From: a virus
Virus genome (UHGV): UHGV-0373331
Length of the DNA: 36,618 nucleotides
Direction: 5' to 3' (one strand)
The notes under the pieces are model-generated. The model did no database searches. It was not told the origin of the DNA and saw nothing but the letters and a program-made list of their open reading frames with translations. Each line of letters starts with the position of its first letter. The stretch's first letter is position 1. The translations under genes and the position numbers were made by a program. This document shows, in pieces, positions 1 through 34,337 of the stretch.

Positions 1-34
1 GTGAAATAAAATAAAAATAAGTTTTAGAAACTAG

Positions 35-63
35 TTGACACCCCTTAATTGGGGTGTTATACT
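35..63 (+). promoter_or_regulatory. Early sigma70-type promoter: TTGACA (35-40), 17-nt spacer, TATACT (58-63). The spacer holds the hairpin ACACCCC-ttaatt-GGGGTGT.
   Basis: Consensus -35 and -10 hexamers with exact 17-nt spacing lie upstream of the RBS and ATG at 93. The motif TATACTTAGT is shared with five other plus-strand promoters in the window. Confidence 0.6.
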
Positions 64-92
64 TAGTACATAAATAAGAGGAGGTTTTATCT

Positions 93-599
93 ATGGAAGA
101 AATTTGGAAAGATATAACAGGATATGAAGGATTATACCAAATAAGTAGTTTAGGTAGAGTTAAAAGTAGTAGTCATGATATAATCTTAAAAACATATGTT
201 AATAGAGGCTATCATCAAGTGCATTTGAGTAAAAACAACATTAAATCTAGTAGAACTATACACCGTTTAGTGGCAGAAGCATTTATACCAAACCCTGAAA
301 ACAAACCTCAAGTTAATCATATTGATGAGGATAAATCAAATAACAGTATGTCGAATCTTAATTGGATGACGGCAAAAGAAAATTCAAATCATGGTACTAG
401 ATCACTTAGAGTAGGTGTAGAAAGTGGTAAAACAAGAAGTAAACCAGTAAAAGCAATTAATGTAACGAGTGGAGTGACTCTTAAATTCGAGAGTGCCGCG
501 CAGTGTGCAAAAATATTGTCAGTATCACAAGGTAATGTTACTAGAACACTTAAAGGTAGAAGTAAGACTGTAGGAGGTTATTACGTTGAATACTTATAA
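93..599 (+). CDS. HNH homing endonuclease (NUMOD4 N-terminus, HNH_3 core, C-terminal NUMOD1/IENR-like helix-turn-helix)
   Basis: The N-terminus WKDITGYEGLYQISSLGRVKS is a typical NUMOD4 motif. HRLVAEAFIPNP...VNHIDEDKSNNSMSNLNWMTAKENSNHG is an HNH_3 core. The RBS AAGAGGAGG precedes the ATG. Confidence 0.8.
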   Translation: MEEIWKDITGYEGLYQISSLGRVKSSSHDIILKTYVNRGYHQVHLSKNNIKSSRTIHRLVAEAFIPNPENKPQVNHIDEDKSNNSMSNLNWMTAKENSNHGTRSLRVGVESGKTRSKPVKAINVTSGVTLKFESAAQCAKILSVSQGNVTRTLKGRSKTVGGYYVEYL

Positions 600-1338
600 A
601 CAATTACGACTAAAGAAAAATGGTAAAGCCCCACTAATCGCAGGTGCCTTTAATGGTGAATCAGAAGAGTTGATTCAAAACTGGATTAAAGAGGGCGGTA
701 ATATCGGAATTCTTACTGGAACAAAAAGTGGAATCATAGTGGTTGACTTAGACCGTCATGGTACTTCAGATGGGGTTGACGCATTAAATAATCTACTTGA
801 AGCATATGATATTGAGTTACCAATAACTAAAGTAGTTAAGACACCCAATAACGGATATCATTATTATTTTAAGTTACCTTCGAAATATTATGATATTCAA
901 CTGAAACAGAATATAAATGGTTATGAAGGTATTGATTTTCAGAGTAGCGGTCGTTTCGTGGTAGCACCACCCAGTCAAATTGATGGTATATCATATGAGT
1001 TGATTCGTGACGTTGCTGAGTTACCAGAGTTACCAGAGAAGTTACTTGAGATTTTAGTGGATAAAACGATTACAAAAAAGAACAAGAAGCGCGAGCGCAA
1101 ATGGACGGCAAACCTATTAGGTGATATAATTGCAGGTAGTGGAGAAGGAGGGAGGAATATCTGGCTGACCACTCAAATTGGTAAACTATTTGCCACTGGC
1201 TTGAATCATGATGAGGTGCGTGTGTGGTCTCTATACGTTAACCAGATTGGCTGTAATACACCACTGTCAGAGGATGAAGTACTACAAACATATGAGAGTG
1301 TTCGTAAGCGTGAAATTAGAAGAATGGAGGAAAACTGA
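586..1338 (+). CDS. Bifunctional primase-polymerase (Prim-Pol N-terminal domain) with a PriCT_1-like C-terminal domain
   Basis: GILTG...GIIVVDLDRHG matches the Prim-Pol catalytic DxD/H region. The C-terminal stretch NIWLTTQIGKLFATGLNHDEV...LSEDEVLQTYESV resembles the primase C-terminal (PriCT_1) domain. Confidence 0.65.
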   Translation: MNTYKQLRLKKNGKAPLIAGAFNGESEELIQNWIKEGGNIGILTGTKSGIIVVDLDRHGTSDGVDALNNLLEAYDIELPITKVVKTPNNGYHYYFKLPSKYYDIQLKQNINGYEGIDFQSSGRFVVAPPSQIDGISYELIRDVAELPELPEKLLEILVDKTITKKNKKRERKWTANLLGDIIAGSGEGGRNIWLTTQIGKLFATGLNHDEVRVWSLYVNQIGCNTPLSEDEVLQTYESVRKREIRRMEEN

Positions 1339-1538
1339 TGGATAAGCGATTATTTAGTACAGAGTTTAAAAATGGATATTGTGTGACAGTATTCAGTCAA
1401 TCAAGATTTGAGTTAAAATATTATGTAGAGGTTTTCCATGTTAATGAACCACAAGATACTCATAGAGTTGAGTTTCATACAGCACGTGAGGTATTTGGAT
1501 ATTTATCAGATATTCAAAACTATAAGCAAAAAGACTAG
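1338..1538 (+). CDS. Hypothetical small protein
   Basis: Its ATG overlaps the upstream stop (ATGA), suggesting translational coupling with the Prim-Pol gene. A 24-bp perfect palindrome (1534-1557) follows. Confidence 0.4.
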   Translation: MDKRLFSTEFKNGYCVTVFSQSRFELKYYVEVFHVNEPQDTHRVEFHTAREVFGYLSDIQNYKQKD

Positions 1539-1614
1539 TCAATTGACTAGTCTTAACGAGAGGAGGGAGGAGGAATCCCTATAATTAATTATATCATAAA
1601 ATAAAAGTTTTGTG

Positions 1615-1643
1615 TTGACATTGAAACAAGAATGTGTTACTAT
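1615..1643 (+). promoter_or_regulatory. Early promoter: TTGACA (1615-1620), 17-nt spacer, TACTAT (1638-1643) preceded by TGt
   Basis: Consensus -35 hexamer, exact 17-nt spacing and an extended -10, located upstream of the GTG-start ORF at 1674. Confidence 0.5.
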
Positions 1644-1673
1644 TAAGATATTAAAAAGAGAGGATTTGATAAA

Positions 1674-1907
1674 GTGATAGAAGACCTACAAAATACAAAA
1701 CGCTACCAAACACGTTCAGGTAAACAACTCTTTGACGTATTAGAAGACGACTTGCTAACATATGATGAGCTACGTGGTTTCTACAAAGCTAACATTTACA
1801 AATATACACATAGATACAAAGAAAAAAATGGTATTGAAGATTTGAAAAAAGTGAAGGTCTATGTAGACCAACTAATTAAATTGGAGGAAAAACAAAATGC
1901 GATTTGA
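1674..1907 (+). CDS. Hypothetical protein (GTG start)
   Basis: ORF with the RBS AAAGAGAGG upstream; no recognisable motif. Confidence 0.4.
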   Translation: MIEDLQNTKRYQTRSGKQLFDVLEDDLLTYDELRGFYKANIYKYTHRYKEKNGIEDLKKVKVYVDQLIKLEEKQNAI

Positions 1908-2367
1908 ACCATTAAACGAGCCGTACGACATGTACGCCATAACAGATGAGGGTCATGTGTTTCATTTAGACAAAGAACGATATGAAACGGAATTAGTTGA
2001 TCCAAAGAATGGAAAGATGTACGTGGTTCTTGATGGATCACATAAGAAGTCACGCAAGTTCTATATCTCTCAATTAGTGGCAGATATGTTTGTCAAAAAT
2101 GAGCATAATCTAGGATATTTATATTTTAAAGATGGCAACGTACAAAATAGTCACTATACCAACATTGGATACGCTATTAATCCAAAAGAAGGGTTACAAC
2201 GTGTGGCACGTCCTTTCAGAAAGAAAGTAGAGCCCAAACGACATGCCTTAATTGTAGCTATTGGAGAAGCATGTGAGAAAAAGGATTGGAAAGAAGCTAA
2301 TAAACTAGGAAAAGAACTTTGGCAATTGGAGGGCGCGTCATATGAAAACAGAAACCATGAGTTTTGA
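1897..2367 (+). CDS. Degenerate NUMOD4/HNH_3-like homing-endonuclease relative
   Basis: YAITDEGHVFHL resembles NUMOD4. ISQLVADMFVKNEHNLGYLYFKDGNVQNSHYTNIGYA aligns with the HNH_3 core, but the catalytic His is not conserved. Confidence 0.4.
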   Translation: MRFEPLNEPYDMYAITDEGHVFHLDKERYETELVDPKNGKMYVVLDGSHKKSRKFYISQLVADMFVKNEHNLGYLYFKDGNVQNSHYTNIGYAINPKEGLQRVARPFRKKVEPKRHALIVAIGEACEKKDWKEANKLGKELWQLEGASYENRNHEF

Positions 2368-3103
2368 TATTCACTATTCAGGAAGTAAAGGAAACTGCGC
2401 GTCTATCTATTATGATAATTTAGGCTTTTTAATTGACATAGGCAAGCCATATAAATATATTGAGCCATATTTATTTAACAAGCAATTCATTCTAATCACA
2501 CATAAACACCAAGACCACCTAGTATATACAACATATAAAAAAATAAGAGAAAACTTCCCACATATTAAAATATTAGGAAACCAGGAAGTACAAGATAACT
2601 TGAAGACGCGTAACTTACCACAATTAGACCTTATCTTCAAAGATGACTTTCAATTTCAGATTGGTGAAGTCAAGTTCACAACACTTCAGAATTATCATGG
2701 CGCTGGAGAAGATTATACAGAAACACATGGTTTCATCATGGAGACCCCTAACCAAAACACTCTGTTTGCTACTGATTTAAGTACAATGACAGACTATGAA
2801 AAGTATCTTTTGGACAATGATTTAAAGATTGATACACTGTTACTTGAAGCTAATTATGACCCTAAAGTTATTGAATTTTACGAATCAACAAAACAGCACA
2901 CCGGCTACGATGTGTTCAGCTCAGGTTCATATCGCCATTTAAGTACAACAGAACGAGAGTTATTTGTTGACAAATTTGGCAAACCTAGTATGATTAATAT
3001 AGAATTGCACCAGTCAGAAACATATCGCACTTTTGATGGGTTAATTAAACGTTCAAAAGGAAAAATTACCAAAAAAGATGTTGACAACTGGTTAATAAGA
3101 TGA
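2342..3103 (+). CDS. Metallo-beta-lactamase-fold hydrolase
   Basis: THKHQDH is the MBL HxHxDH signature. The upstream glycine-rich motif YSGSKGNCASIY and the spacing of the later His/Asp residues fit the fold. Confidence 0.7.
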   Translation: MKTETMSFDIHYSGSKGNCASIYYDNLGFLIDIGKPYKYIEPYLFNKQFILITHKHQDHLVYTTYKKIRENFPHIKILGNQEVQDNLKTRNLPQLDLIFKDDFQFQIGEVKFTTLQNYHGAGEDYTETHGFIMETPNQNTLFATDLSTMTDYEKYLLDNDLKIDTLLLEANYDPKVIEFYESTKQHTGYDVFSSGSYRHLSTTERELFVDKFGKPSMINIELHQSETYRTFDGLIKRSKGKITKKDVDNWLIR

Positions 3104-3138
3104 TACAATTAAAACATAAAGACAGAGGAGGAAATAAA

Positions 3139-3366
3139 ATGAAATACCAATATGGAGATCTAGTAAAATTTACGAACAACTATGGAATGCACGCAGCACA
3201 AGGTGATGAGGGTACAGTGCAACACGTAGACAAGTTTGGAAACATTCTTGTCTTAGTTGAATCAGGCGATTTTGCAGCACGCTTTGAGGAGGTACGTGAC
3301 GAAGATATTGAACTGATTGACCGTTTGAGTGATGATGATTTGGATTTGCTGAAGGAGGAGCTGTAA
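3139..3366 (+). CDS. Small acidic protein, member of a paralogous small beta-barrel-like family (with 5205..5417)
   Basis: I refined the start to the ATG at 3139, 7 nt after AGAGGAGG; the track ORF begins at 3100. It shares the pattern G-LV...YG....GDEG-V....Y-V.L..G....F-E-D with the 5205 ORF. Confidence 0.45.
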   Translation: MKYQYGDLVKFTNNYGMHAAQGDEGTVQHVDKFGNILVLVESGDFAARFEEVRDEDIELIDRLSDDDLDLLKEEL

Positions 3367-3368
3367 GA

Positions 3369-3536
3369 ATGAACTATAAAACGCTGTTAAAATTAGACTA
3401 TGGCTACACTGAAAACCAGTTGTTTGATATCATTGAGAAGTACAAATGGCTATTCAAATTAAATTATACGATTGATGAACTTTTTGCAGTAGAGTATAAA
3501 CGCCTTCAGATGGAGGATGAAAAGCATGGCATTTGA
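3369..3536 (+). CDS. Unannotated 55-aa ORF (MNYKTLLKLDYGYTENQLFDIIEKYKWLFKLNYTIDELFAVEYKRLQMEDEKHGI)
   Basis: It is absent from the ORF track because it is under 60 aa. GAAGGAGGAG lies 8 nt before its ATG, and it fills an otherwise empty gap. Confidence 0.35.
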   Translation: MNYKTLLKLDYGYTENQLFDIIEKYKWLFKLNYTIDELFAVEYKRLQMEDEKHGI

Positions 3537-4332
3537 ATTATCAATACAATCAAGCGGTAAACAAGAAATACAGTTCGTTGGATATGATAAAACGCTGGAG
3601 GATGTGAGACGTTTGGTGGCTGAAATGGAACAACAAGAGGTAACGGAAGAAAACATTCAGACATCAAAGAAACTCATTGCTAGCATTAATAAACAAATCA
3701 AAGAACTGGACAAAGAGCGCTTGGCAGTTAAGCGTGAGATTATGACACCATATGATGAGCTTAACGAAAAAATACAATTACTCAAGTCAGAATTAAATAA
3801 AGGAGTAACGCACATCAATGTTCAGATTAAAGAAATCACTGTACGTGAACAGGAACAAAGGAAATTACAAATCAAAGACTTATTTAAGAAATATCAGAAG
3901 TCATATAACGCTCCACAGTGGCTTACTTTTGATAAGTTCATTGCAAAAAACCCAACACTAATTACTAATAAGGCAACAAGCGCTAAAAAGATACGTGAAG
4001 CGGTGGTTTCTTATTTTGAAACATTTAAACAGGACTATGACCTATTAAAAACACAATATCCAGACAAGGATGATCGTTCTGCGATTTTGATTGCCTACTC
4101 TAAAAATGGTCATAATATGCAAGACGCAATACTGGACTATACAAGCATGATTGCAGAGAAAGAGCGTCTTGAGATTGAGCAAAGACGAGTGAAAGAAACG
4201 AAAGTTCCAGATATTGTTATTATCACTGGCAACGAGCAAAAACAGGAAGCTGCGAAACCAGTTGAATATGTAACAATTAAGATTAATAAAGAAGACTTGA
4301 ATAAACTGAAAATTGATTATGAGATACTGTAA
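3526..4332 (+). CDS. Coiled-coil protein of unknown function, early/recombination region (possibly DUF1351-like)
   Basis: Start refined to ATG 3526, after GGAGG. The sequence is long, charged and predicted coiled-coil. The family assignment is from memory only. Confidence 0.35.
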   Translation: MAFELSIQSSGKQEIQFVGYDKTLEDVRRLVAEMEQQEVTEENIQTSKKLIASINKQIKELDKERLAVKREIMTPYDELNEKIQLLKSELNKGVTHINVQIKEITVREQEQRKLQIKDLFKKYQKSYNAPQWLTFDKFIAKNPTLITNKATSAKKIREAVVSYFETFKQDYDLLKTQYPDKDDRSAILIAYSKNGHNMQDAILDYTSMIAEKERLEIEQRRVKETKVPDIVIITGNEQKQEAAKPVEYVTIKINKEDLNKLKIDYEIL

Positions 4333-4357
4333 CAGCCTACACAAGTAAGGGAATATA

Positions 4358-4366
4358 TGATATAAT
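4358..4366 (+). promoter_or_regulatory. Extended -10 promoter element TGaTATAAT
   Basis: Exact TGnTATAAT motif about 60 nt upstream of the ATG at 4424. Confidence 0.4.
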
Positions 4367-4423
4367 AGACTTTGTAAAAGAAAAGAGAAGAGAAAATAAA
4401 ACAACTTAATTGGAGGAATTAAA

Positions 4424-5116
4424 ATGTCAGAATTGAAAAAAGTAATTATTGTTAGCGCAGAGGAAGACGATATTAGTGTGAAGTTACAGGTAGCGAGTGA
4501 GGACTACAGCGCTATTTATGAAGCAGCAGTTTTTAAACAAACATATGATAAATACTCTAAAACGTGGAATGACTTCACAGATGAAGATACAAAAGGTAAA
4601 GAACGATTAGCTAAAGCATTAGAACTTTTAGGTGGTTCATTTGATAACCTTGAAGATAAAGAGTTAGAAATGTATGTGGATGAAGAAACCGGTAAGGCCT
4701 ACTTTGAAGAAGGCCCATCATTTAAAAAGATTGAGAAGCCACTGGTTTCACTAAAACGGTTGAAGCAAGTACCAATTGTTGAAATTAAAGACTCAGCAAA
4801 AGGACGTGCTGTTGTGGTAGAACATGACGGAAAATACTATTCATTCAATTTTAATTCAGGAGTTTATATTGAGAAATTAAATAAGTTTATTCCTAATCAA
4901 GCGAAACTTGCAAAATCAAAAGCACGATTCAATGAATTGTTTGAGGACGTAAACGTAACATGGGAAACAGCAGATATGGCAATTGGAATGGTTGTGGATT
5001 GTAAGGTTAAGAAAAATATGTTAGATACTGCTTCACCTTACGGATGGTTAGAACCACAACCACTTGATCCAGCAGATCAGAAAGAATCAGTAACAGACGA
5101 AGAACTACCCTTCTAA
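4424..5116 (+). CDS. Putative single-stranded DNA-binding protein (acidic C-terminal tail ...TDEELPF)
   Basis: The C-terminus DEELPF mimics the conserved SSB interaction tip D-D-D-I-P-F. The protein is acidic overall and sits in the replication/recombination neighbourhood. Confidence 0.35.
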   Translation: MSELKKVIIVSAEEDDISVKLQVASEDYSAIYEAAVFKQTYDKYSKTWNDFTDEDTKGKERLAKALELLGGSFDNLEDKELEMYVDEETGKAYFEEGPSFKKIEKPLVSLKRLKQVPIVEIKDSAKGRAVVVEHDGKYYSFNFNSGVYIEKLNKFIPNQAKLAKSKARFNELFEDVNVTWETADMAIGMVVDCKVKKNMLDTASPYGWLEPQPLDPADQKESVTDEELPF

Positions 5117-5128
5117 AATAAATTACAA

Positions 5129-5160
5129 AGAGTTGACCTTATGGGTTGACTCTTTTGTTT
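5129..5160 (+). terminator. Rho-independent terminator (10-bp stem with G-U pairs, then TTTTGTTTT) overlapping the -35 of the next promoter
   Basis: AGAGTTGACC ttatg GGTTGACTCT followed by a T-run, immediately after the stop at 5116. Confidence 0.6.
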
Positions 5161-5174
5161 TCCCATGGTATACT
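5146..5174 (+). promoter_or_regulatory. Early promoter: TTGACT (5146-5151), 17-nt spacer, TATACT (5169-5174), continuing TATACTTAGT
   Basis: Same architecture and -10 context as the promoters at 35, 8405, 30601, 31241 and 31887. Confidence 0.55.
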
Positions 5175-5204
5175 TAGTTCATAAGTTAAGAGGAGGAAAA
5201 CAAT

Positions 5205-5417
5205 ATGAACATTGGAAACGTTGTAGAGTTAAAACGAGATAACATATACGGAATAGGCAAGAAAGGTGACGAAGGGGTGGTACTGTATAAGCTATATAAA
5301 CCTGTTGACGACTATGAATACCTGGTTAGGTTGTATAATGGAGCAACAGAAGCATTCCTAGAAAAAGATTTACAATTAGTAGTAAAAACACTTGACAAAG
5401 TAAACTTTAGATGGTAA
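5205..5417 (+). CDS. Small protein, paralog of 3139..3366
   Basis: Shared GDEG-centred motif; RBS AAGAGGAGG. Confidence 0.45.
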   Translation: MNIGNVVELKRDNIYGIGKKGDEGVVLYKLYKPVDDYEYLVRLYNGATEAFLEKDLQLVVKTLDKVNFRW

Positions 5418-5451
5418 ACTTAATTTATAAGATAAAGAGAGGACGATTAAA

Positions 5452-5784
5452 ATGACTAAACAAAATCCAGTATTAGAAACATTAAAGAAAATGAACACAC
5501 CACAACAGGAGGAAAAAGACATGACAAACGAACAATTACAAAACGAAATTTTGAATGAACAATTAACACAACTTAAAAGTATGAAGGAAGATTCTAACAA
5601 ACCAAGTTTAGTAGTTTATATCTTACTAGCATTATTCTTAGGAGGAATTGGCGCACATGATTTCTATGTTGGAAAACCAGTAAAAGGACTTATTAAACTA
5701 GTGTTCTGTTGGACAGGTATTCCTATGTTTATTGCCGTATTCAATATCATTGGTGCTTTGATGAACAAACAAAACTTTAAATAA
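5452..5784 (+). CDS. TM2-domain membrane protein
   Basis: LLALFLGGIGAHDFYVGKPVKGLIKLV...TGI matches the TM2 domain (two helices with a G-x-H-x-F-Y-x-G core). Confidence 0.6.
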   Translation: MTKQNPVLETLKKMNTPQQEEKDMTNEQLQNEILNEQLTQLKSMKEDSNKPSLVVYILLALFLGGIGAHDFYVGKPVKGLIKLVFCWTGIPMFIAVFNIIGALMNKQNFK

Positions 5785-5800
5785 TAGGAGGAAGATTAAC

Positions 5801-6007
5801 ATGATGTTATTAGACAACTTAATTTTAACAGTAAAAGATGAATATGGTGTGATCATCAATAGACATTTTAATGAGGTGTATGTAAAGATTGATCCAACTC
5901 AAATGATGATCACAAACAATAAGAAGACAATTGCTGTTTATAAGTTAGATGATGTTCTATACATGCAAACACAAGGGCATCCACGCAACTTTAAACTGTT
6001 CCAATGA
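5801..6007 (+). CDS. Hypothetical small protein
   Basis: ORF preceded by the RBS TAGGAGGAAG. Confidence 0.4.
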   Translation: MMLLDNLILTVKDEYGVIINRHFNEVYVKIDPTQMMITNNKKTIAVYKLDDVLYMQTQGHPRNFKLFQ

Positions 6008-6108
6008 GACACACAATAGAAAGTTTTATGGAGTTTGTACTTTGCACTTGCATTCTGATTATAGATGTAGTATATTATATTTTAACTGGAAAAGAGAGGA
6101 AGTAAGGA

Positions 6109-8400
6109 ATGAAAAATATTGCAGAATTTAAAGGTGCTGAAAAGTTAGCAAGTAAGCTATTAGAAATATTCGCAGCACTTGCAGGCAATGCCAAGAGTTT
6201 TGATCCGCTAGTAGAAGGGGTTCACCAAGTTGTAGTCATTAAATCAGAGGAACGTTTATCTAAAAAAGGTAAAAAAATGCGTGAGATTAAGCTTAGAAGT
6301 TTAAAAGATGGTAGAGATGCTACTATATATATTATGAAGTTTCGTAAGCAAGATTGGAACACTTGGGAAAATATAGAAGTTGGACAGCAGTTAATGATTA
6401 CTCTAAAATACAATAATGGTTTTCCAAATGTAACCATCAATCAAAAAGGAGCGGTGATTGACATATTACCTGAGAAACCAAATGAGGCACTAACCAACCA
6501 AACAATCTATATTTATGACATTGAAGTATTTAAAAAAGATAATTTATTTGTTTTCAGAGATTACTTCACTAAAGAATGGACAGTTATTCATAATGATTTA
6601 GACGCTTTACGCAAGTTCTATCTAGCGAATAGAGATTCATTGTTTGTAGGTTATAACTCACACTCATATGATTCAAATGTCATGCGTGCATATTTACAAG
6701 GTAAAAACCCCTTTCATGTGTCAAAAGCAATCATTGAAAGTGATGATAGAGGATTAGTTTACAAGATGTTTGACACAAAGAAAACCCCTTTGTTTGGAAT
6801 GGATTTGTATCAAGACAATAGAGGATTCAGCTTAAAAGAGCATAGCGCTTTCATGGGTATTAATATTAAAGAAACAGAAGTTGATTTTGACTTAGACAGA
6901 GAATTAACAGAAGAAGAACAAGTACTGAATGAATTATACTGTAAAAATGATGTGCTAGCTACTGAAAAACGTTTTGAACAAAATATAGGCATGTTAGTAG
7001 CTAAGGCTGCAATTGCGTTGTACTTTGGTTTAGATAAAATGGCACTGTCAATGACTAACGCCAACTTGACTGCTGAACTATTAGGAGCTGAAAAAACACC
7101 TGATAGAGGTGACGAGTTAGATAAGTATGAACTACCAGAAGGTTTTGAAATTGAGTCAGAGACCATTCGTCAGGCATTTATGACAAATGAGTTTGAAGCT
7201 AATGATAAAGGACATGCAAGCATCTCATTAGATGTACCACGTAGAGACGTAACAGAGGTTTTAGGAGTAGGTGGTATACATGGTGCTAAGGAGTCATTTA
7301 TTCATGTAGGTAACTTCCACGCACGTGACGTTGGTTCATTGTACCCTAATACAATGGTGCTGTTTGACTACTTGTCAAGAAACATTCCAGAAGAAAAAAG
7401 ACATATCTATCAAATGTTATTAGATGAACGTATGGAAGCTAAGTATTCTAATAAAGAATTTACTGAAATTAAAGGTGTTCAGATTCCAACTAAGTTATTG
7501 ATTAATGGGTATAAACTACCTCTAAATACTAAATATGGTGCAATGGGGGCTGAGTTTAATAAACTGTATGACCCACGTATGAGGCTATTAGTATGTATCA
7601 CTGGACAGATGGCTATGTGGGACTTACTAGAAAAGATTGAAGACCACGCTACTATTATTCAATCAAACACAGACGCACATTACTATATTCCATTCAGTGA
7701 AGAAGATGAAAAAGCCATTGATGAGATTGCAAATGATTGGATGAAACGGACAGGGTACACCTTAGACGATGATCCATTTAGAGAAATATATCAAGCCAAC
7801 GTAAATAATTACTTGGCGGTTACAACTGAGGGTCAAGTTAAGTTTAAAGGAGCAATTGGTTTAACTAATGGTTTGAAGGTATCTAAAGCAATTGTGTCAA
7901 ATGCTTTTATTAACTACGTGGTTGCTGGCAAAGATTATAAAGAGTTTATTAATGAATGTGACGAACTACGTCAGTTCCAAATGATTACTAAAACAGGCTA
8001 TACTTTTGATGATACTATTGTACGTGATAGTGAAGGTAATGAAATGAAAGCACAAAAAGTGAATCGTACATTTGCAATAAAAGACCCTAACAAAGCTGTT
8101 GAAATATTCAAGGTGAAACGAGGAGCTGTAATTGAAGAGGAAGGCACAACGATTGTTGGTGATGATTCTTACACTAAAGGTTTACCTAATGCTCCTGAAT
8201 ATTATGCTATTGATAATGACGCCATTGGAGAAGGATGGATAACTCTTGATGATATTGATAAAGAATACTATATAAACCAAGTGGAGGATTTACTAGTGAT
8301 GTGGTTTGGTGCAACGTGGAAAGAAAGGATTGAGCAAGCACATGCCAAAAGAAATAAACTTGGATACAAGACACCTAGTGTCAGAAACTACATTGACTAA
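6109..8400 (+). CDS. Family B DNA polymerase with 3'-5' proofreading exonuclease
   Basis: Exo I is IYIYDIEVF, Exo II is FVGYNSHSYDSNV and Exo III is YCKNDVLAT. Pol motif A is DVGSLYPNTMV and motif B is KLPLNTKYGAMG. The motif C region reads IIQSNTDAHYY. Confidence 0.85.
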   Translation: MKNIAEFKGAEKLASKLLEIFAALAGNAKSFDPLVEGVHQVVVIKSEERLSKKGKKMREIKLRSLKDGRDATIYIMKFRKQDWNTWENIEVGQQLMITLKYNNGFPNVTINQKGAVIDILPEKPNEALTNQTIYIYDIEVFKKDNLFVFRDYFTKEWTVIHNDLDALRKFYLANRDSLFVGYNSHSYDSNVMRAYLQGKNPFHVSKAIIESDDRGLVYKMFDTKKTPLFGMDLYQDNRGFSLKEHSAFMGINIKETEVDFDLDRELTEEEQVLNELYCKNDVLATEKRFEQNIGMLVAKAAIALYFGLDKMALSMTNANLTAELLGAEKTPDRGDELDKYELPEGFEIESETIRQAFMTNEFEANDKGHASISLDVPRRDVTEVLGVGGIHGAKESFIHVGNFHARDVGSLYPNTMVLFDYLSRNIPEEKRHIYQMLLDERMEAKYSNKEFTEIKGVQIPTKLLINGYKLPLNTKYGAMGAEFNKLYDPRMRLLVCITGQMAMWDLLEKIEDHATIIQSNTDAHYYIPFSEEDEKAIDEIANDWMKRTGYTLDDDPFREIYQANVNNYLAVTTEGQVKFKGAIGLTNGLKVSKAIVSNAFINYVVAGKDYKEFINECDELRQFQMITKTGYTFDDTIVRDSEGNEMKAQKVNRTFAIKDPNKAVEIFKVKRGAVIEEEGTTIVGDDSYTKGLPNAPEYYAIDNDAIGEGWITLDDIDKEYYINQVEDLLVMWFGATWKERIEQAHAKRNKLGYKTPSVRNYID

Positions 8401-8404
8401 ACAC

Positions 8405-8433
8405 TTAACACCTCTTAACTGAGGTGTTATACT
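8405..8433 (+). promoter_or_regulatory. Promoter TTAACA-17-TATACT with the hairpin AACACCTC-ttaact-GAGGTGTT in the spacer
   Basis: A near-duplicate of the element at 35-63; it lies upstream of the NrdH-like gene. Confidence 0.5.
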
Positions 8434-8463
8434 TAATTCATAAAGTAAAAGGAGGAACAATAA

Positions 8464-8703
8464 ATGATTAAAATTTATACTAAAAACAACTGCATGCCTT
8501 GTAAAATGACGAAGAACTGGTTCAAAGGAAAAGGACACACATTCACTGAGGTTAATGTAGATGACAACTTAGAAGGGTTAAATGAATTACTTACTATGAA
8601 CCTAAGAACGCTACCAGTAGTGTTTAAAGATGGTGAGTTTGTGAGTATGGGGTTTGTACCAAATAAATGGGAAGAATTTAAAGTAAGGTTATTACCCAAT
8701 TAA
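8464..8703 (+). CDS. NrdH-like glutaredoxin
   Basis: 79 aa; the N-terminal CMPC is the CxxC redox motif of the thioredoxin fold. The ORF reads IKIYTKNNCMPCKMTKNWF. Confidence 0.7.
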   Translation: MIKIYTKNNCMPCKMTKNWFKGKGHTFTEVNVDDNLEGLNELLTMNLRTLPVVFKDGEFVSMGFVPNKWEEFKVRLLPN

Positions 8704-10459: not shown

Positions 10460-11433
10460 ATAGGATAAGACATTGCACTAATACTACAATATGATGCCTT
10501 ATTAGCTGACGTAAATATCATATTTCCTGCATTAGACACTGCTAATCTACCACCATATGCGGTGTTGGTTGCAGCGTATGAAAATACTGTTTTATCTGGT
10601 AAGATACTAGCTGGCATTGTAGTAACACTACCAGTGTTACCTGGGTGGCCAGTACCTGAGCCTGTTTGAAATGGGTAGAACTCGCCCGCTGGCATTGAGC
10701 CTGATTTTAATCCAAACTGTCCTCGGAAAGAGACTGTTTTACTACCATCTAAATTATAGGCAATCCTGTACTGGCAAGGGTTAGATTCCTTAGTTTCAAA
10801 TGCACTACCTAAGGTTAATGTCACCCAAGGAGTCTTAGTCAATGCTTTAGCGTCTAATACGCCATTATAGTTACCAGATGAGTCACTAAGCGATAATGTG
10901 ATTAAACCACCACGTACCCCTGTAGTAGATTCTGATGTTAGTGTACCTGATTCATCATACATTCTCTGTCTAAGGTTTACAGTACCTTGATGAATATCTG
11001 CTTCTGTAGTAGCAAATTTATATAGTCTTTCACCAGAACTGTTTGTTAAATAGTATGAAGCACCAGCCTGTAGAATACCATCTTTAATACCTAGTTTACC
11101 ATCAGTAACTTGATTTGCACCACTAGTAACCTTTTCATACTCATTAATAAATTCAGAACCACTAATGGTTGTTCCGTTAATAACTCCACCATTTATTTCC
11201 GCTGCTGTGATGATTTTACCAATTAATTCCTCTGCAATAATTTGACTTGCAAACTCAACTTCAACCCATTGTCCATTTTCACGATTGTAACTATTTGTAG
11301 CTTTACCATTAATCACTTTAAACCATGTATCTCCATCTTTTGGGTTAGTTGGCTCTTCCTCTTGCCAGTATACCGTACCTGAACTGGTCTCAATCTGCAT
11401 GTTGTTAATAATTTTCATCCCTTGGGCTTGCAT
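10453..11433 (-). CDS. Tail fibre / receptor-binding protein candidate
   Basis: It is the last gene of the tail module, after Tal. It is Gly/Ser/Thr-rich and beta-rich, with the N-terminal motif EPTNPKDGDTWF. Confidence 0.4.
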   Translation of the reverse strand: MQAQGMKIINNMQIETSSGTVYWQEEEPTNPKDGDTWFKVINGKATNSYNRENGQWVEVEFASQIIAEELIGKIITAAEINGGVINGTTISGSEFINEYEKVTSGANQVTDGKLGIKDGILQAGASYYLTNSSGERLYKFATTEADIHQGTVNLRQRMYDESGTLTSESTTGVRGGLITLSLSDSSGNYNGVLDAKALTKTPWVTLTLGSAFETKESNPCQYRIAYNLDGSKTVSFRGQFGLKSGSMPAGEFYPFQTGSGTGHPGNTGSVTTMPASILPDKTVFSYAATNTAYGGRLAVSNAGNMIFTSANKASYCSISAMSYPIK

Positions 11434-28686: not shown

Positions 28687-28730
28687 ATTATATCATATAA
28701 AAAGAACCCTGTGTTAAGAAACCAGGGTTC
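28687..28730 (-). promoter_or_regulatory. Hairpin (28704-28730) plus extended -10 TGaTATAAT (reverse complement of 28687-28695)
   Basis: GAACCCTG...CAGGGTTC stem. The reverse complement reads TATATGATATAATAAAAC. Confidence 0.4.
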
Positions 28731-28976
28731 AATGGTGTTTATAGGGGGAACAATCGTTAAAGGGAAATAACACTACATATAGTGGTAAGCCTTGATTTTA
28801 AACACAAGAAACCAGTTTTTTATTACGTTTTTCAAGGGAAAAGGACGTTTTTCAAAGTTCATTTTTAGAATTTCGTGCGAAGAAGAGGGGACAGCGATTA
28901 ATTCGTTATAAAATGTAGGGGGGGTAAAAACATTTTGGGTCTCCCTAAAAATAATTTTGACTGTGCGGTTGTTGAT
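28700..28976. other. Candidate cos (cohesive end) region: non-coding, with G-rich tracts unusual for this AT-rich genome
   Basis: No ORFs are present. It contains ATAGGGGGAA, GAAGAGGGGA, TAGGGGGGGTAAAAAC and GGGTCTCCC. It is flanked by an HNH_5 endonuclease gene and the terS/terL genes, as in HK97-like cos phages. Confidence 0.4.
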
Positions 28977-30002: not shown

Positions 30003-30187
30003 TTGCGATTACCTCCTAATAACCAGCTCCACACGATAACCAGTTGTGCAATTGCAAAGCCCCAATCACCTTGCTGGAATAATTGATATGGTAACTTCAT
30101 ACCTAAATAGATAGCAATGTAACCGAAACCAATGATAATCAAGAGACTTAATATAATTGATAAACTCGTGGCTAATACGTCTTTCAT
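29999..30187 (-). CDS. Small two-TM membrane protein
   Basis: Hydrophobic segments SLSIILSLLIIIGFGYIAIYLG and FAIAQLVIVWSWLLGG. Its start overlaps the upstream stop (ATGA). Confidence 0.4.
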   Translation of the reverse strand: MKDVLATSLSIILSLLIIIGFGYIAIYLGMKLPYQLFQQGDWGFAIAQLVIVWSWLLGGNRK

Positions 30188-30249
30188 TGTATCTCCTCCT
30201 TGTTTCTATTATATCATAGATAAGGGATATTGTGTTAGCTAAGTAAACC

Positions 30250-30590
30250 AGTTGTTAGTGACAAAAAATCATCCTAAAATTGTCATTTTGTCACTAAATT
30301 GCTTGTTTTTGTCATCGTTTTGTCACTGATTTTGACACCTGAAATCGCTGTAACCCTTGATATATCTACATTCTTATTTTTATAATGACAAAATGACAAA
30401 ATATTATATATAAAAAAAATAAATAAAGTTACTACACTATAATGTAGTAACATAGATATATGGGCTTAAATAAATTATATTTTGTCATTGTGTCATTTTG
30501 ATGAAACTGGTCTCATAAACGTTGATATAATAGGATTCTTGTTGTAAAAACTAGTGACAAAAATAATGTCACTGTTTTGTCACTAGCTGA
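30250..30590. repeat. Iteron / inverted-repeat array (at least 10 copies of TTTGTCA[CT] or GTGACAAAA in both orientations) flanking an AT-rich core
   Basis: The hairpin GTTACTACA-ctataa-TGTAGTAAC lies in the AT-rich core. The repeats are TTGTCATTTTGTCAC, TTTTGTCATCGTTTTGTCAC, ATGACAAAATGACAAAAT and TTTGTCATTGTGTCATTTTG. A 12-bp inverted repeat CTAGTGACAAAA-N12-TTTTGTCACTAG spans 30551-30586. Confidence 0.6.
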
Positions 30591-30600
30591 ATTAAACCAG

Positions 30601-30629
30601 TTGACACTGGTTTGTATACATGCTATACT
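30601..30629 (+). promoter_or_regulatory. Early promoter TTGACA-17-TGcTATACT (TATACTTAGT)
   Basis: Exact consensus -35, 17-nt spacer and extended -10; directly downstream of the iteron array. Confidence 0.6.
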
Positions 30630-30659
30630 TAGTTTATAAATTAAAAGGAGGAAATAAAC

Positions 30660-30944
30660 ATGGTTTTCAATATAACTGAGTTCAGTAATTATGAAGTGAC
30701 TAAAGGAGGTATTGTATATAATAGACACCACAAACCTATCAGACGTAAATGGATTGGTAACAACATATATACTTGTATATATTATATCAACAAGAAAAAA
30801 CGTTTCGTAAGAGTTGATAAATTAGTCTATCAAACGTATGTACAAAATCCACCTTATGACTACGAATTAGAACATATTAATGGTGATGAGGCTAATTGTA
30901 ACTTAGAGAATTTAAAGCATATACCACTTAATAAGAAGGAATGA
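30660..30944 (+). CDS. Short NUMOD4/HNH_3-like protein (94 aa), probably a degenerate homing-endonuclease relative
   Basis: SNYEVTKGGIVYN is NUMOD4-like. LEHINGDEANCNLENLKHIP is an HNH_3-like core. RBS AAAAGGAGG. Confidence 0.45.
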   Translation: MVFNITEFSNYEVTKGGIVYNRHHKPIRRKWIGNNIYTCIYYINKKKRFVRVDKLVYQTYVQNPPYDYELEHINGDEANCNLENLKHIPLNKKE

Positions 30945-30947
30945 ATC

Positions 30948-31235
30948 ATGCAAGTTACATTCACTGGAACACCACACGAAATCATGCAACAATACGCAAC
31001 ATGGTTAGAAACACTTGACCTTGAACAAAAGCTACTATATAATAAAATAGTAATCACAGGAAACAAACAAGATAAAGTACCATTATCAGAGTATAAAAAA
31101 GTAATTCAAGAACTTGCAATTGATAATGGAGGAGGAATAAAAACGATTGACAAAGAAATCATGAGCTGTTACAATGTAGAAAAGAAACGATTTAGCAATG
31201 GTTTCTTTGTCACAGGAATCAAAATAAAACAATAA
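30948..31235 (+). CDS. Hypothetical protein
   Basis: ORF only. Confidence 0.4.
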   Translation: MQVTFTGTPHEIMQQYATWLETLDLEQKLLYNKIVITGNKQDKVPLSEYKKVIQELAIDNGGGIKTIDKEIMSCYNVEKKRFSNGFFVTGIKIKQ

Positions 31236-31905: not shown

Positions 31906-33513
31906 ATGAGGGAGGAAATGAATAGAATGAATGAACTAACGAAAATAGATTACTCAGCACCAGTTGAGGAATTACTACCAGTGTCAAATAAAAACTTTCC
32001 AAGTGAGGAGTTTGTGGACTTCAATTCAGAATTAGGAAGAATGTACTACGGTGGCAAAGACGGTACACAACCAAAATTTGAGATTCAACAGGAATTATTT
32101 ATTGATAAATTTAACCAACTAGCCTATGTGTACGCTCACCCTAATTTAAACGCTCCATACGTATACAATGCAGACACACGTATCTGGTCTGAGGTAAATC
32201 TAGGTAGTTACAAGTATTCAGATTGGTACTTTGAAAATATTTTAGCACCAAAGTTTACACCACAATTCAGAAACCCAGAGTTTGGGAATGAGATACGTAA
32301 AGAAATGAAGAAACTAGCTCCTGAGTTGGCTAATCGCTCTATGACACGTGGAGAGAATGCACCTCTAGGTGACAATCCTAACCCAAATATTATTGCCTTT
32401 GAAAATGGGACATATGACTTTAAAACAAATGACATTCGTGAGACTAGGTTAGAAGATTATCATACGTTACAATTACCATACCCTTTAATTAAAACAGATG
32501 AGACAGATGAACTACTCGCAAAACAATGGATTGATTATTTACTGAAAGATCAAGCACAGACCTTCTATGAGTACATTGGTTATATGTATTATAGAGAGTA
32601 TAAATATCAATCAATTTTGTATCTCTTAGGTAATGGGTCAAATGGTAAGTCTTACGTAGGTGGGTTTATCATGAATAAATTAATTGGTTTCAAAAATAGT
32701 TCCGCAGTTGGTCTAGACAGCTTAGCAGATAAAAACAATCGTTTTGACAAAGCTTCATTACACCATAAATTATTGAACTTTGAAGCGGATTCAAGTGCCA
32801 ATTTTGTGAAGGGTACTGAGACACTGAAAAAGCTGTCAGGAGGTCTTGATGCTGTTCATGCTGAGAAAAAAGGAAAAGATGCCTTTAGTTTTACAAACTA
32901 TGCGAAGCTAATGTTTTCCATGAATGAATTACCCGCATTTAACGACCGCACAAATGGATGGTATAGACGTATTCTGATTCTAAACTTCAATACCAATCTT
33001 GACACACCAGAAGCACGTGAGCGCATTAATGAGTTCAACAAACAACGTGAGGAACGTGAGTCAAAAGAACAACTAGGTAAATTTGCATGGTTCTGTATTC
33101 AACAATTCAAAAAGATTTTAGACGCAGGCACAAATGGAGAAAACCCGTTCACAGAAACAGAAGATATGATTGCATTCAAGAAAGCATATATTGAATCAAA
33201 CGACCCATCTAAAGAGTTTTTGAGTGAAGTACCTGTTATTGTGGAAGATGAAGAAGGCATGGTTAACCTAACACTATTGAAGAATATCTTTAATGTGTAC
33301 ACAAAAGAGAACAACATTAACAAGTCAATGAACTGGCGTACTATGAAAGAACTATTATTGAAGCAAGGATTTGAGGAAAAACGTACAAGTAAAGCAAGAG
33401 TACTCACTGGTCTAAAAATTGCACGCAACGGAGACAATGAGTCAATTAGACCATATTTAATGAACGCATTAGCAGGTACAGAGTACGCGAACATTTTCAA
33501 TGACGTAGAATAG
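31906..33513 (+). CDS. D5/P4-type primase-helicase (SF3 NTPase)
   Basis: LLGNGSNGKS is the P4-family Walker A, followed by LNFEAD (Walker B-like). The size and the C-terminal DNA-binding-like region fit the D5-like family. Confidence 0.7.
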   Translation: MREEMNRMNELTKIDYSAPVEELLPVSNKNFPSEEFVDFNSELGRMYYGGKDGTQPKFEIQQELFIDKFNQLAYVYAHPNLNAPYVYNADTRIWSEVNLGSYKYSDWYFENILAPKFTPQFRNPEFGNEIRKEMKKLAPELANRSMTRGENAPLGDNPNPNIIAFENGTYDFKTNDIRETRLEDYHTLQLPYPLIKTDETDELLAKQWIDYLLKDQAQTFYEYIGYMYYREYKYQSILYLLGNGSNGKSYVGGFIMNKLIGFKNSSAVGLDSLADKNNRFDKASLHHKLLNFEADSSANFVKGTETLKKLSGGLDAVHAEKKGKDAFSFTNYAKLMFSMNELPAFNDRTNGWYRRILILNFNTNLDTPEARERINEFNKQREERESKEQLGKFAWFCIQQFKKILDAGTNGENPFTETEDMIAFKKAYIESNDPSKEFLSEVPVIVEDEEGMVNLTLLKNIFNVYTKENNINKSMNWRTMKELLLKQGFEEKRTSKARVLTGLKIARNGDNESIRPYLMNALAGTEYANIFNDVE

Positions 33514-33773: not shown

Positions 33774-33788
33774 TTTTGAACTTTACCC

Positions 33789-33817
33789 TTGACTTATTGT
33801 TGAGGGTATTGTATTAT
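33789..33817 (+). promoter_or_regulatory. Promoter TTGACT-17-TGtATTAT
   Basis: Consensus-like elements upstream of a cluster of small ORFs. Confidence 0.45.
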
Positions 33818-33843
33818 ATAAATATAGAGAGGGAGGAATTAAA

Positions 33844-33935
33844 ATGACATTTATGATGATGGGGTTATTATTTATTGGAGTAGTAATTTATGGAGCTGGA
33901 GTACTTATCCACTGGTTAGAAGAAGGAGGATATTA
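33844..33935 (+). CDS. Unannotated 30-aa hydrophobic peptide (MTFMMMGLLFIGVVIYGAGVLIHWLEEGGY)
   Basis: RBS GAGGGAGG 7 nt upstream. Its stop is followed by the RBS GAAGGAGG of the next gene. Confidence 0.3.
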
Positions 33936-33937
33936 AA

Positions 33938-34120
33938 ATGTATATTGTTGGTAGACATCCAGAACACACGTATGCCATAGAAGTATTGAACGATAAAGGA
34001 GAATGGGTAAGGGATATGTACGATGTACCTATAGATGAATATAGCATAAAGAAGCTGGCTAAACATTATAAATTACGAGGATACACATTAAAACAAATCA
34101 GAATAGTGAAGGTGATTTAA
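33938..34120 (+). CDS. Hypothetical small protein
   Basis: ORF with RBS. Confidence 0.35.
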   Translation: MYIVGRHPEHTYAIEVLNDKGEWVRDMYDVPIDEYSIKKLAKHYKLRGYTLKQIRIVKVI

Positions 34121-34121
34121 G

Positions 34122-34337
34122 ATGGAGAAAATCAATTACAGAAAAGCACTAACAACAGAGAATGATGAGCAAGTACTGGTGGCAACCTACGATAATGATA
34201 GAGATATTTACATTAGATTAATAGACGATGAAGACGATTGGGCTAGTGTGACACTAACTCTGAAAGAGGCACAACGAGTAAAGCGCTACTTAGAAGACGC
34301 TATCACAACTCATATTATAAACTGGGAGGAAGAATGA
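34122..34337 (+). CDS. Hypothetical small acidic protein
   Basis: ORF; its start overlaps the previous stop. Confidence 0.35.
   Translation: MEKINYRKALTTENDEQVLVATYDNDRDIYIRLIDDEDDWASVTLTLKEAQRVKRYLEDAITTHIINWEEE

Follow-up and report, generated by a model that had tools for sequence, protein, structure and literature searches.

A candidate SaPI-like iteron origin and its putative helicase reader in a virulent Enterococcus faecium siphophage

Introduction

The origin of phage lambda has iterons beside an AT-rich unwinding region that are read by the phage initiator O, and the P4 alpha protein, a D5/P4-family helicase, binds repeated octamers at its origin through a C-terminal domain. In the pathogenicity islands of Staphylococcus aureus (SaPIs), the Rep proteins are self-loading SF3 helicases whose C-terminal winged-helix domain recognizes penta- or hexanucleotide iterons and sets origin specificity; their origins comprise 6–12 short iterons and an AT-rich centre, with at least two iterons per side in opposite directions, and PDB entry 7OLA is such a protein, PriRep5 of SaPI5 (PMC9371898). 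Here, we report a non-coding repeat array in the UHGV virus genome UHGV-0373331; the whole stretch analyzed, 36,618 nucleotides, is called the window below and corresponds approximately to the whole genome of a virulent Enterococcus faecium siphophage similar to IME-EFm5 and IME-EFm1. No described origin for the IME-EFm1/EFm5 group was found in the literature; the only related proposal is for the Efquatrovirus phage Abitsa (Viruses 2026), where a SaPI5-like origin with seven 10-bp iterons around an AT-rich region was proposed independently, by computation, at the equivalent locus (PMC13517437). We consider it likely that the region described here is an iteron origin resembling those of SaPIs, onto which the helicase of the phage would load itself and which probably also affects the divergent promoters, because its anatomy, the type of the helicase, and a covariation localized to the helicase C-terminus point in this direction.

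Results

The array is housed in a divergent intergenic region of 472 bp (30188–30659), bounded by a 62-amino acid minus-strand gene that ends at 30187 and by the first plus-strand gene (ATG at 30660); no plausible gene was found within this gap, for which a preliminary description of the same DNA had given about 340 bp, which is too short. An equivalent gap of 450–650 bp is present in all relatives examined. The same description had noted a cluster of short motifs in both orientations, partly as doublets, and this was confirmed. The 36.6-kb window has 14 exact copies of TTTGTCAY, nine of which are inside 30258–30583, where 0.045 copies per 326 bp would be expected from the five copies in the other 36.3 kb (Poisson P ~2e-18). 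Whole-window counts of TTTGTCAY are not above those of shuffled sequences, so it is the clustering, not the total number, that is non-random. The palindromic pentamer core TGWCA (TGACA/TGTCA) is found 13 times in 30230–30600 versus 0.94 expected from the rest of the genome (P ~3e-11), and a position weight matrix built from the sites gives 13 matches at 30257–30584, in both orientations, with a doublet spacing of 8 or 11 bp. There is no second iteron cluster in the genome: the other 18 matrix matches and the five exact TTTGTCAY copies are scattered over the rest of it, and outside 30257–30584 no 450-bp stretch has more than a few scattered motif matches. No Rfam family matched in the region (only a sub-threshold caiA match, E 0.17).

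The centre of the array is formed by two doublets facing each other across AT-rich DNA. The left one, TGACAAAATGACAAAA (30384–30402, minus strand), has two sites at 30384 and 30392 with 8-bp spacing, each scoring 16.3 bits, and is invariant in class A, i.e., the relatives with TTTTGTCAY repeats; the right one, TTTTGTCATTGTGTCATT (30479–30497, plus strand; sites 30479 and 30487), is inverted relative to it. Both belong to a 28-nt inverted repeat that is 89% complementary and has its right arm at 30470–30497. As a bacterial genome query, the 16-mer TGACAAAATGACAAAA gave scattered matches in unrelated organisms, with no Enterococcus among the matches listed, the pattern being too simple. The AT-rich core with a hairpin, claimed in the preliminary description, is also there: 30400–30482, presumably the DNA unwinding element, has an A+T content of 85.5%, no other 80-bp segment of the genome is as AT-rich as the one that starts at 30374, and the central palindrome GTTACTACAcTATAaTGTAGTAAC (30428–30451; arms GTTACTACA-N6-TGTAGTAAC) sits in its middle. 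When treated as single-stranded DNA, the core gives a much better fold than shuffled sequence (z = −5.5).

Two outer arms lie beyond the doublets. The left arm (30255–30339) has six TTTTGTCAY-type sites, at 30257–30267 (minus), 30277–30287 (plus, weak), 30285–30295 (plus), 30306–30316 (plus), and 30317–30327 (plus) and, as the sixth, the variant TTTTGACAC at 30329–30339; it also contains a 12-nt inverted repeat, TTAGTGACAAAA-N19-TTTTGTCACTAA, at 30255–30266 and 30286–30297. The right arm (30551–30586) is the palindrome CTAGTGACAAAA-N12-TTTTGTCACTAG, a 12-bp inverted repeat already noted in the preliminary description and exact in both arms (30551–30562 and 30575–30586), with a third site inside; its sites are 30553–30563 (minus), 30563–30573 (plus), and 30574–30584 (plus). 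Between the left arm and the left doublet lies a conserved element that is not an iteron, AATCGCTGTAACCCTTGATA (30343–30362), which is kept in class-A relatives.

Some side observations concern the central palindrome and this last element. The palindrome arms (ACTACACTA and TAATGTAGT) are the same as the ACTACAYT iteron of a metagenomic relative, L029 (6125–6573; about 12 copies; helicase 74% identical to that of the window), which could point to a relic or to a further site of binding, or be due to chance; four class-A relatives have an unrelated palindrome, AATATGCgtattaGCATATT, in its place. In some relatives (right halves of L004, L005, L006, and L019), the reverse complement of the element AATCGCTGTAACCCTTGATA is present on the far side of the AT-rich core, at a distance of about 190 bp; the window has the left arm only. 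In IME-EFm1 both arms are adjacent and give a hairpin, CGCTGTGTCCTT-loop-AAGGGATACAGCG (L008, ~1527–1565), and in the metagenomic relatives L029 and L030 the sequence tccttactctcccaagggat is present twice.

The proposed initiator is an SF3 helicase of the D5/SaPI-Rep type (31927–33513, plus strand; Pfam D5_N and DUF5906). The start at 31927, giving 528 amino acids, is likelier than the start of the longest open reading frame at 31906, because relatives and metagenomic homologues start at MNEL. The only significant PDB match of its sequence is 7OLA (E 1e-9), and the best Foldseek matches of its AlphaFold2 model are the 7OLA chains (E 4e-16), followed by the D5-type primase-helicases of African swine fever virus and mpox; sequence identity to PriRep5 is about 16–20%. 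In the model, the C-terminus (residues 448–498) consists of helices at 448–461 and 470–479 and strands at 483–486 and 491–498, i.e., a helix-helix-β-hairpin, with a predicted local distance difference test score (pLDDT) of about 64–86 per 10-residue block; this would be winged-helix-like as a predicted topology only. The preliminary description had placed the array upstream of a D5-type primase-helicase gene. The D5/SF3 type holds (D5_N and SF3-helicase domains), the primase does not: Pfam finds no primase domain in 31927–33513, although public records say “DNA primase” and the PHROG and NCBI names for its homologues are “P4-family primase”. A Prim-Pol/PriCT_1 primase is encoded by a separate plus-strand gene (586–1338; Pfam E 8e-25) and is a likely partner in initiation. 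In the window, the array is 1.25 kb upstream of the gene for the helicase; in LG62 it directly precedes that gene, and in Efquatrovirus it is upstream of it by about 5 kb.

Among close relatives, vb_GEC_Ef_S_9 is 94% identical across the region around the array, and further DNA matches to the array region were found in KEN22, SSBHU, KEN18, BUCT630, EF36P1-3, dArtagnan, Aramis, IME-EFm5, IME-EFm1, and Bp29. Every relative examined keeps the architecture: a conserved AAACCAGTT precedes the left arm, doublets in inverted orientation flank an AT-rich centre, and the right arm is directly upstream of the early promoter. In eight class-A relatives the TGTCA cores and the inner doublets are invariant, and mosaicism is seen in the spacers, in the central palindrome, and across the entire right half. 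Phages with the same helicase differ most in the outer arms. Three repeat classes can be told apart: class A with TTTTGTCAY (for example TTTTGTCAC); class B (IME-EFm5, KEN18, and Aramis) with fewer sites of the ATGACA/TGTCAT kind (for example ATGACAT), in which the pentamer is still enriched (8–10 copies versus about one expected); and class D (Bp29, DELF1, and KEN21) with degenerate CGTCA/AGACA (for example CGTCA). Conservation in relatives, proposed earlier as a check, is thus found for the layout and, in class A, for the cores, and not for the repeat sequence itself, which changes with the helicase.

Altogether eight helicase variants were found, each paired with its own repeat type. With window proteins as queries, the helicase is 96–98% identical in GEC9, IME-EFm5, KEN18, Bp29, and dArtagnan and 29% identical in IME-EFm1; IME-EFm1 and LG62 have GGTACACAAAA-type repeats at the same positions as those of the window (GGTACACAAAA/GGGACACAAA in IME-EFm1). 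With IME-EFm1 proteins as queries, two proteins are at least 85% identical in LG62 and below 50% or absent in five other genomes, namely the helicase and a 72-amino acid protein that is wholly absent from the window. By this two-way proteome comparison, of the universally present proteins the helicase alone is specific to the IME-EFm1/LG62 pair, and no other one tracks the repeat change. A 60-amino acid protein (33938–34120), which initially seemed specific to phages with TTTTGTCAY repeats, was considered as repeat binder and rejected because Aramis (class B) has the gene and vB_EhiS_268 (class A) gave no match; likewise, neither the variable slot upstream of the 34122 homologue, nor the gene just downstream of the helicase, nor the first early genes follow repeat type or class.

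A protein search gave metagenomic helicases 57–86% identical to that of the window, on contigs that share the intergenic layout. L029 (74%) has about 12 copies of ACTACAYT, and L033 (58%) has 12 copies of TGTTACTTTTT; L030 (82%) and L031 (80%) keep the doublet TGACAtTTAGACA, of the (T/A)GACA type, beside the AT-rich core. The L029 helicase differs in the putative recognition helix (WKTFQKML versus WRTMKELL in the window) and in the following β-hairpin; the 80–82% identical helicases of L030 and L031 are nearly unchanged in both.

The covariation is localized most closely in Efquatrovirus, phages of E. faecalis with a helicase about 30% identical to that of the window and an equivalent divergent gap that is laid out in the same way. 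Over residues 1–420, the helicases of phiSHEF2, BUCT824, and EnP share 97–100% identity; the last ~100 residues of phiSHEF2 are only about 55% identical to those of BUCT824 and EnP, which share 87% there. The repeats are about 11 copies of GTGTTCT in phiSHEF2, at least 14 of GYGTTACA in BUCT824, and about 10 of GTTATGCTT in EnP, the latter two being related (TGTAACGCTT versus TGTTATGCTT). In a public phage collection, 77 records have a phiSHEF2-type C-terminus (≥92%) and 29 have a C-terminus at ≤62%; the phiSHEF2-type repeat DNA is in 64 records, with none of the listed phages of another C-terminal type among them, and the full-length BUCT824-type repeat DNA is in 17 records, of which every cross-checkable one has the matching C-terminus. 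No discordant genome, i.e., one with C-terminal type and repeat-region type mismatched, was seen among the cross-checkable Efquatrovirus genomes; please note that these record listings are samples and that related genomes are not independent.

These pairings bear on the possibility that the locus is an origin of the lactococcal c2 (Ceduovirus) kind, which would use host functions and internal transcription and no phage initiator, the repeats being structural or host-bound. The Ceduovirus origin supports plasmid replication without phage proteins and likewise lies between divergent early and late modules (PMC7150918). A promoter-like sequence, TTGATA-18-TATAAT (30357–30386, plus strand; 11/12 consensus positions; largely conserved in class A), reads into the AT-rich core of the window, and on the minus strand the central hairpin resembles a terminator. 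A repeat read by the host, however, should be constant per host, and the repeat instead changes with the phage helicase both among E. faecium phages and among E. faecalis phages, which indicates a phage-encoded initiator. To our knowledge, the TTTTGTCAY-type motif resembles no known host box. We regard an origin of the c2 kind as very unlikely here.

The array is flanked by promoters on both sides. On the right, the early promoter TTGACA-17-TATACT (30601–30629, plus strand) matches 11/12 consensus positions, has a TG before the −10, and is followed by a ribosome-binding site (RBS; 30645–30652) and the ATG at 30660; it is conserved across the clade and has about 80% DNA identity in Efquatrovirus. 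The array had been thought to end exactly at this promoter; the promoter is there, and the array stops 14 bp before its −35. On the left, an extended −10, TGATATAAT (30208–30216, minus strand), is directly upstream of the RBS of the 62-amino acid gene and is invariant in all relatives, including distant ones. Inside the gap, a further extended −10-like element, again TGATATAAT (30523–30531, plus strand), is kept in subgroup A1 as well as in classes B and D. The idea that the repeats are stacked −35-like elements (TTGTCA versus TTGACA) was discarded: promoter-like matches in the region number 10 versus 6.6 ± 3.0 in shuffles, which is no excess; a perfect TTGACA at 30333 has no −10 partner.

With promoters so near, the array may be mainly an element of transcriptional control, with replication starting elsewhere and the helicase as autorepressor, or a small regulator, switching the divergent promoters. 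The 14-bp distance of the right palindrome from the early −35, the position of the left arm upstream of the leftward extended −10, and the centring of both palindromes about 65–75 bp upstream of the presumed transcription starts (counted with a start ~7 nt downstream of the −10) all suit this explanation, and so does the fact that the outer arms differ most among phages with the same helicase. No helix-turn-helix or other regulator family was found, however, among the early proteins or the small minus-strand proteins, many of which are small proteins with no assigned function, and covariation with repeat type is seen for the helicase alone, the 60-amino acid candidate having failed. In addition, inner doublets flanking an 85% AT core are more origin-like than operator-like. 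We therefore consider a mainly transcriptional role unlikely.

Two side observations concern these promoters. The sequence CTGGTYTC has 13 copies genome-wide versus 1.6 expected, a number reached in 0/100 shuffles (for example at 28718, 28808, 29719, and 30507, with CTGGTTTG at 30607), and several copies are within or just after −35-like elements, i.e., at the early promoter, at a site downstream of cos, and at 30507; a role as a promoter element specific to the phage, or as some other recognition site, is possible. The early promoter and RBS of the window (30590–30662) are about 80% DNA-identical to a promoter-like stretch of phiSHEF2 (L016, 2483–2573), which in Efquatrovirus phages is downstream of the helicase gene, which suggests a shared promoter cassette reused at different positions in the window phage and in Efquatrovirus.

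As for the genome around the array, the plus-strand genes from 30660 to the window end and then from 1 to 8703 form the early and replication module, which holds the SF3 helicase (31906/31927–33513), the Prim-Pol/PriCT_1 primase, and a DNA polymerase (6109–8400), as well as a metallo-β-lactamase-fold protein, a DUF1351 protein, and several HNH/NUMOD homing endonucleases. The minus-strand genes run from 30187 down to 8743, with five small genes and an HNH gene first and then the terminase, head, tail, and lysis genes. The preliminary description had called the minus-strand neighbours a late block, which does not apply: these five small genes and the HNH gene lie upstream of the cos site (28888–28896) and so are themselves not late structural genes. 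The cumulative GC skew has its minimum at the array and its maximum near 8.7 kb; this fits a bidirectional origin, though it is confounded by gene orientation.

The cos site was placed by homology (window 28880–28905), where the minus strand reads TTTTATAACGAATTAAT-CGCTGTCCC-CTCTTCTTCGCACGAAATTC; its flanks match the experimentally determined termini of IME-EFm1 almost base for base, with one mismatch in the 9-nt overhang, GGGACAGCG versus GGGTCAGCG (PMC4445525). The array as cos was thus rejected, and it lies about 1.3–1.8 kb from one packaged-genome end, not at the packaging site. Several public assemblies do break here: those of vB_EhiS_268 (L022; start at window ~30397), vB_EfaS-271 (MT520979), and vB_EfaS_159 (CAJDKF010000002) at or near the AT-rich core, and that of G01 (OR797478) begins near the early-promoter edge of the region. 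Repeats and extreme AT content account better for these breaks, which are probably not true genome ends. As an explanation of the array, an element for packaging or for the genome ends (cos or pac), or an assembly-end artefact, is most improbable.

Two variable gene slots were seen beside these features. The first one or two early genes after the early promoter (30660–31235 and its equivalents in L001–L009) form a hypervariable slot that differs between close phages, with an HNH-like 94-amino acid protein in the window, an XRE-family protein in Bp29, and unrelated proteins of 63–109 amino acids elsewhere; the public labels “gamma-glutamyl kinase” and “ABC transporter ATP-binding protein” at this slot have no Pfam support. 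The second (33774–34121) is directly upstream of a conserved 71-amino acid gene (34122–34337) and holds unrelated small proteins in each phage (EFm5_01/02, Bp29 ORF36, IME_052/051, and KEN18 10784–11070). In IME-EFm5, KEN18, IME-EFm1, and LG62 it includes a hydrophobic peptide of 30–42 amino acids (MTFMMMGLLFIG...), and tblastn finds sequence matching this peptide also in the window, dArtagnan, and Bp29, though no gene is called or annotated there.

Discussion

The preliminary description had proposed an iteron-type origin bound by an initiator or helicase-primase, and our analysis supports this: the repeats change with the D5-type helicase, and the layout matches that of SaPI Rep and ori. In the mechanism that we infer from the sequences, the winged-helix-like C-terminal domains of the SF3 helicase (31927–33513) would bind the TGTCA-core repeats, helicase rings or hexamers would assemble on the inverted inner doublets (30384–30402 and 30479–30497) that bracket the AT-rich core, and the core DNA would then melt. 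The origin would fire with the Prim-Pol (586–1338) priming and the phage DNA polymerase (6109–8400) replicating in both directions. The outer repeat arms beside the divergent promoters would probably be extra loading or enhancer sites, and accumulated helicase may, via these arms, dampen early transcription. An operator array, named before as the alternative, could be a second role of the region, given that both divergent promoters have outer repeats next to them, and transcription control by the helicase at the outer arms would be plausible.

Several points weigh against this origin reading. Helicases that are 96–98% identical go with three repeat classes (A, B, and D), and in a residue-level comparison no helicase residue tracks these classes; in Bp29 and DELF1, the putative recognition helix carries a change from E to D that KEN21, also of class D, does not have. 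As the flanks vary among nearly identical helicases, either only a core of about 5 nt is read or the flanks have another reader. The pentamer enrichment in class B would fit the reading of a short ~5-nt core, as in SaPIs, and class D would be weakly explained. The helicase model has moderate confidence (mean pLDDT 74), so that the winged-helix-like fold is a prediction. In most of the comparisons behind the covariation, the phages differ in other places too, and genomes that are related are non-independent samples; the helicase is isolated in two comparisons only, i.e., IME-EFm1/LG62 versus the other phages of the clade and the exchange of the C-terminus in Efquatrovirus. The GC skew is not independent evidence, because its switch coincides with the switch in gene orientation. 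Finally, a SaPI origin is immediately downstream of rep, and the array of the window is 1.25 kb upstream, in a divergent promoter region, which makes a mainly regulatory role of helicase binding possible.

A tentative extension, about which we are rather doubtful, is that origin and helicase C-terminus form an exchangeable lock-and-key pair with at least eight specificities in Enterococcus siphophages, the same contacts also serving as an early-to-late switch. Because origin and helicase lie 1–5 kb apart, a change of specificity needs two coordinated exchanges, and the central palindrome matching the L029 repeat could be a relic or a cross-recognition site. If true, such a pair points to selection for replication privacy against co-infecting relatives, helicase-borrowing satellites, or origin-mimicking decoys.

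The SaPI-like origin read by the phage's own helicase would extend a known SaPI-type mechanism to these phages, rather than being a new mechanism. It gives a candidate origin and a candidate initiator for virulent E. faecium phages that are under development against vancomycin-resistant enterococci. The pair would be useful in phage engineering, as origin plasmids amplified on infection or as a decoy resistance element; cloned dairy-phage origins have already been used as decoy resistance elements. The pairing of helicase C-terminus and repeat in about 100 genomes is also a natural data set for DNA reading by winged-helix domains.

Compared with known systems, the P4, lambda, and Ceduovirus origins share single features with the array. 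P4 needs a second cluster, crr, about 4.5 kb away, and its alpha protein has its own primase domain, whereas the window has one cluster and its helicase has no primase domain. The lambda ori is inside the O gene, and O recruits the host DnaB via P; the array of the window, in contrast, is non-coding, its candidate initiator is itself a helicase, and no O/P-like proteins were found among the window proteins. The Ceduovirus c2 origin is between divergent early and late modules and overlaps early promoters, as the array with its early promoter does, but it works without phage proteins, whereas the repeats of the window covary with a phage helicase (PMC7150918 for c2).

The Abitsa proposal is from a related Enterococcus siphophage, whose helicase is described as a homologue of SaPI5 PriRep5 and whose iterons are near one genome end (PMC13517437); the same layout was found here in the Efquatrovirus phages phiSHEF2, BUCT824, and EnP. 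Abitsa is of another genus, however; the Efquatrovirus helicases compared here, Abitsa's own not being among them, are only about 30% identical to that of the window, the repeat sequences of the Efquatrovirus phages examined differ from those of the window, and the passages of the Abitsa report that were consulted mention neither covariation of helicase C-terminus and repeat nor outer arms (PMC13517437). What would be new here is the evidence, from at least eight specificity types, suggesting that the repeat sequence goes with the C-terminus of the helicase.

The closest system to the array is the SaPI ori/Rep pair. Differences are seen in the extra outer repeat arms beside the promoters, in primase and helicase being separate genes several kb apart, and in the window being a virulent phage and not a satellite. 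The likeness, on the other hand, is seen in these features: at least six clustered non-coding iterons (13 TGWCA-core sites, nine of them exact TTTGTCAY, in ~330 bp); doublets oppositely oriented around an AT-rich centre (30384–30402, minus; 30479–30497, plus); a phage-encoded SF3 helicase with a predicted winged-helix-like C-terminus, for which PriRep5 is the best match in both sequence and fold; and an iteron sequence that covaries with the helicase C-terminus in Efquatrovirus, with flanks that vary within 96–98% identical helicases.

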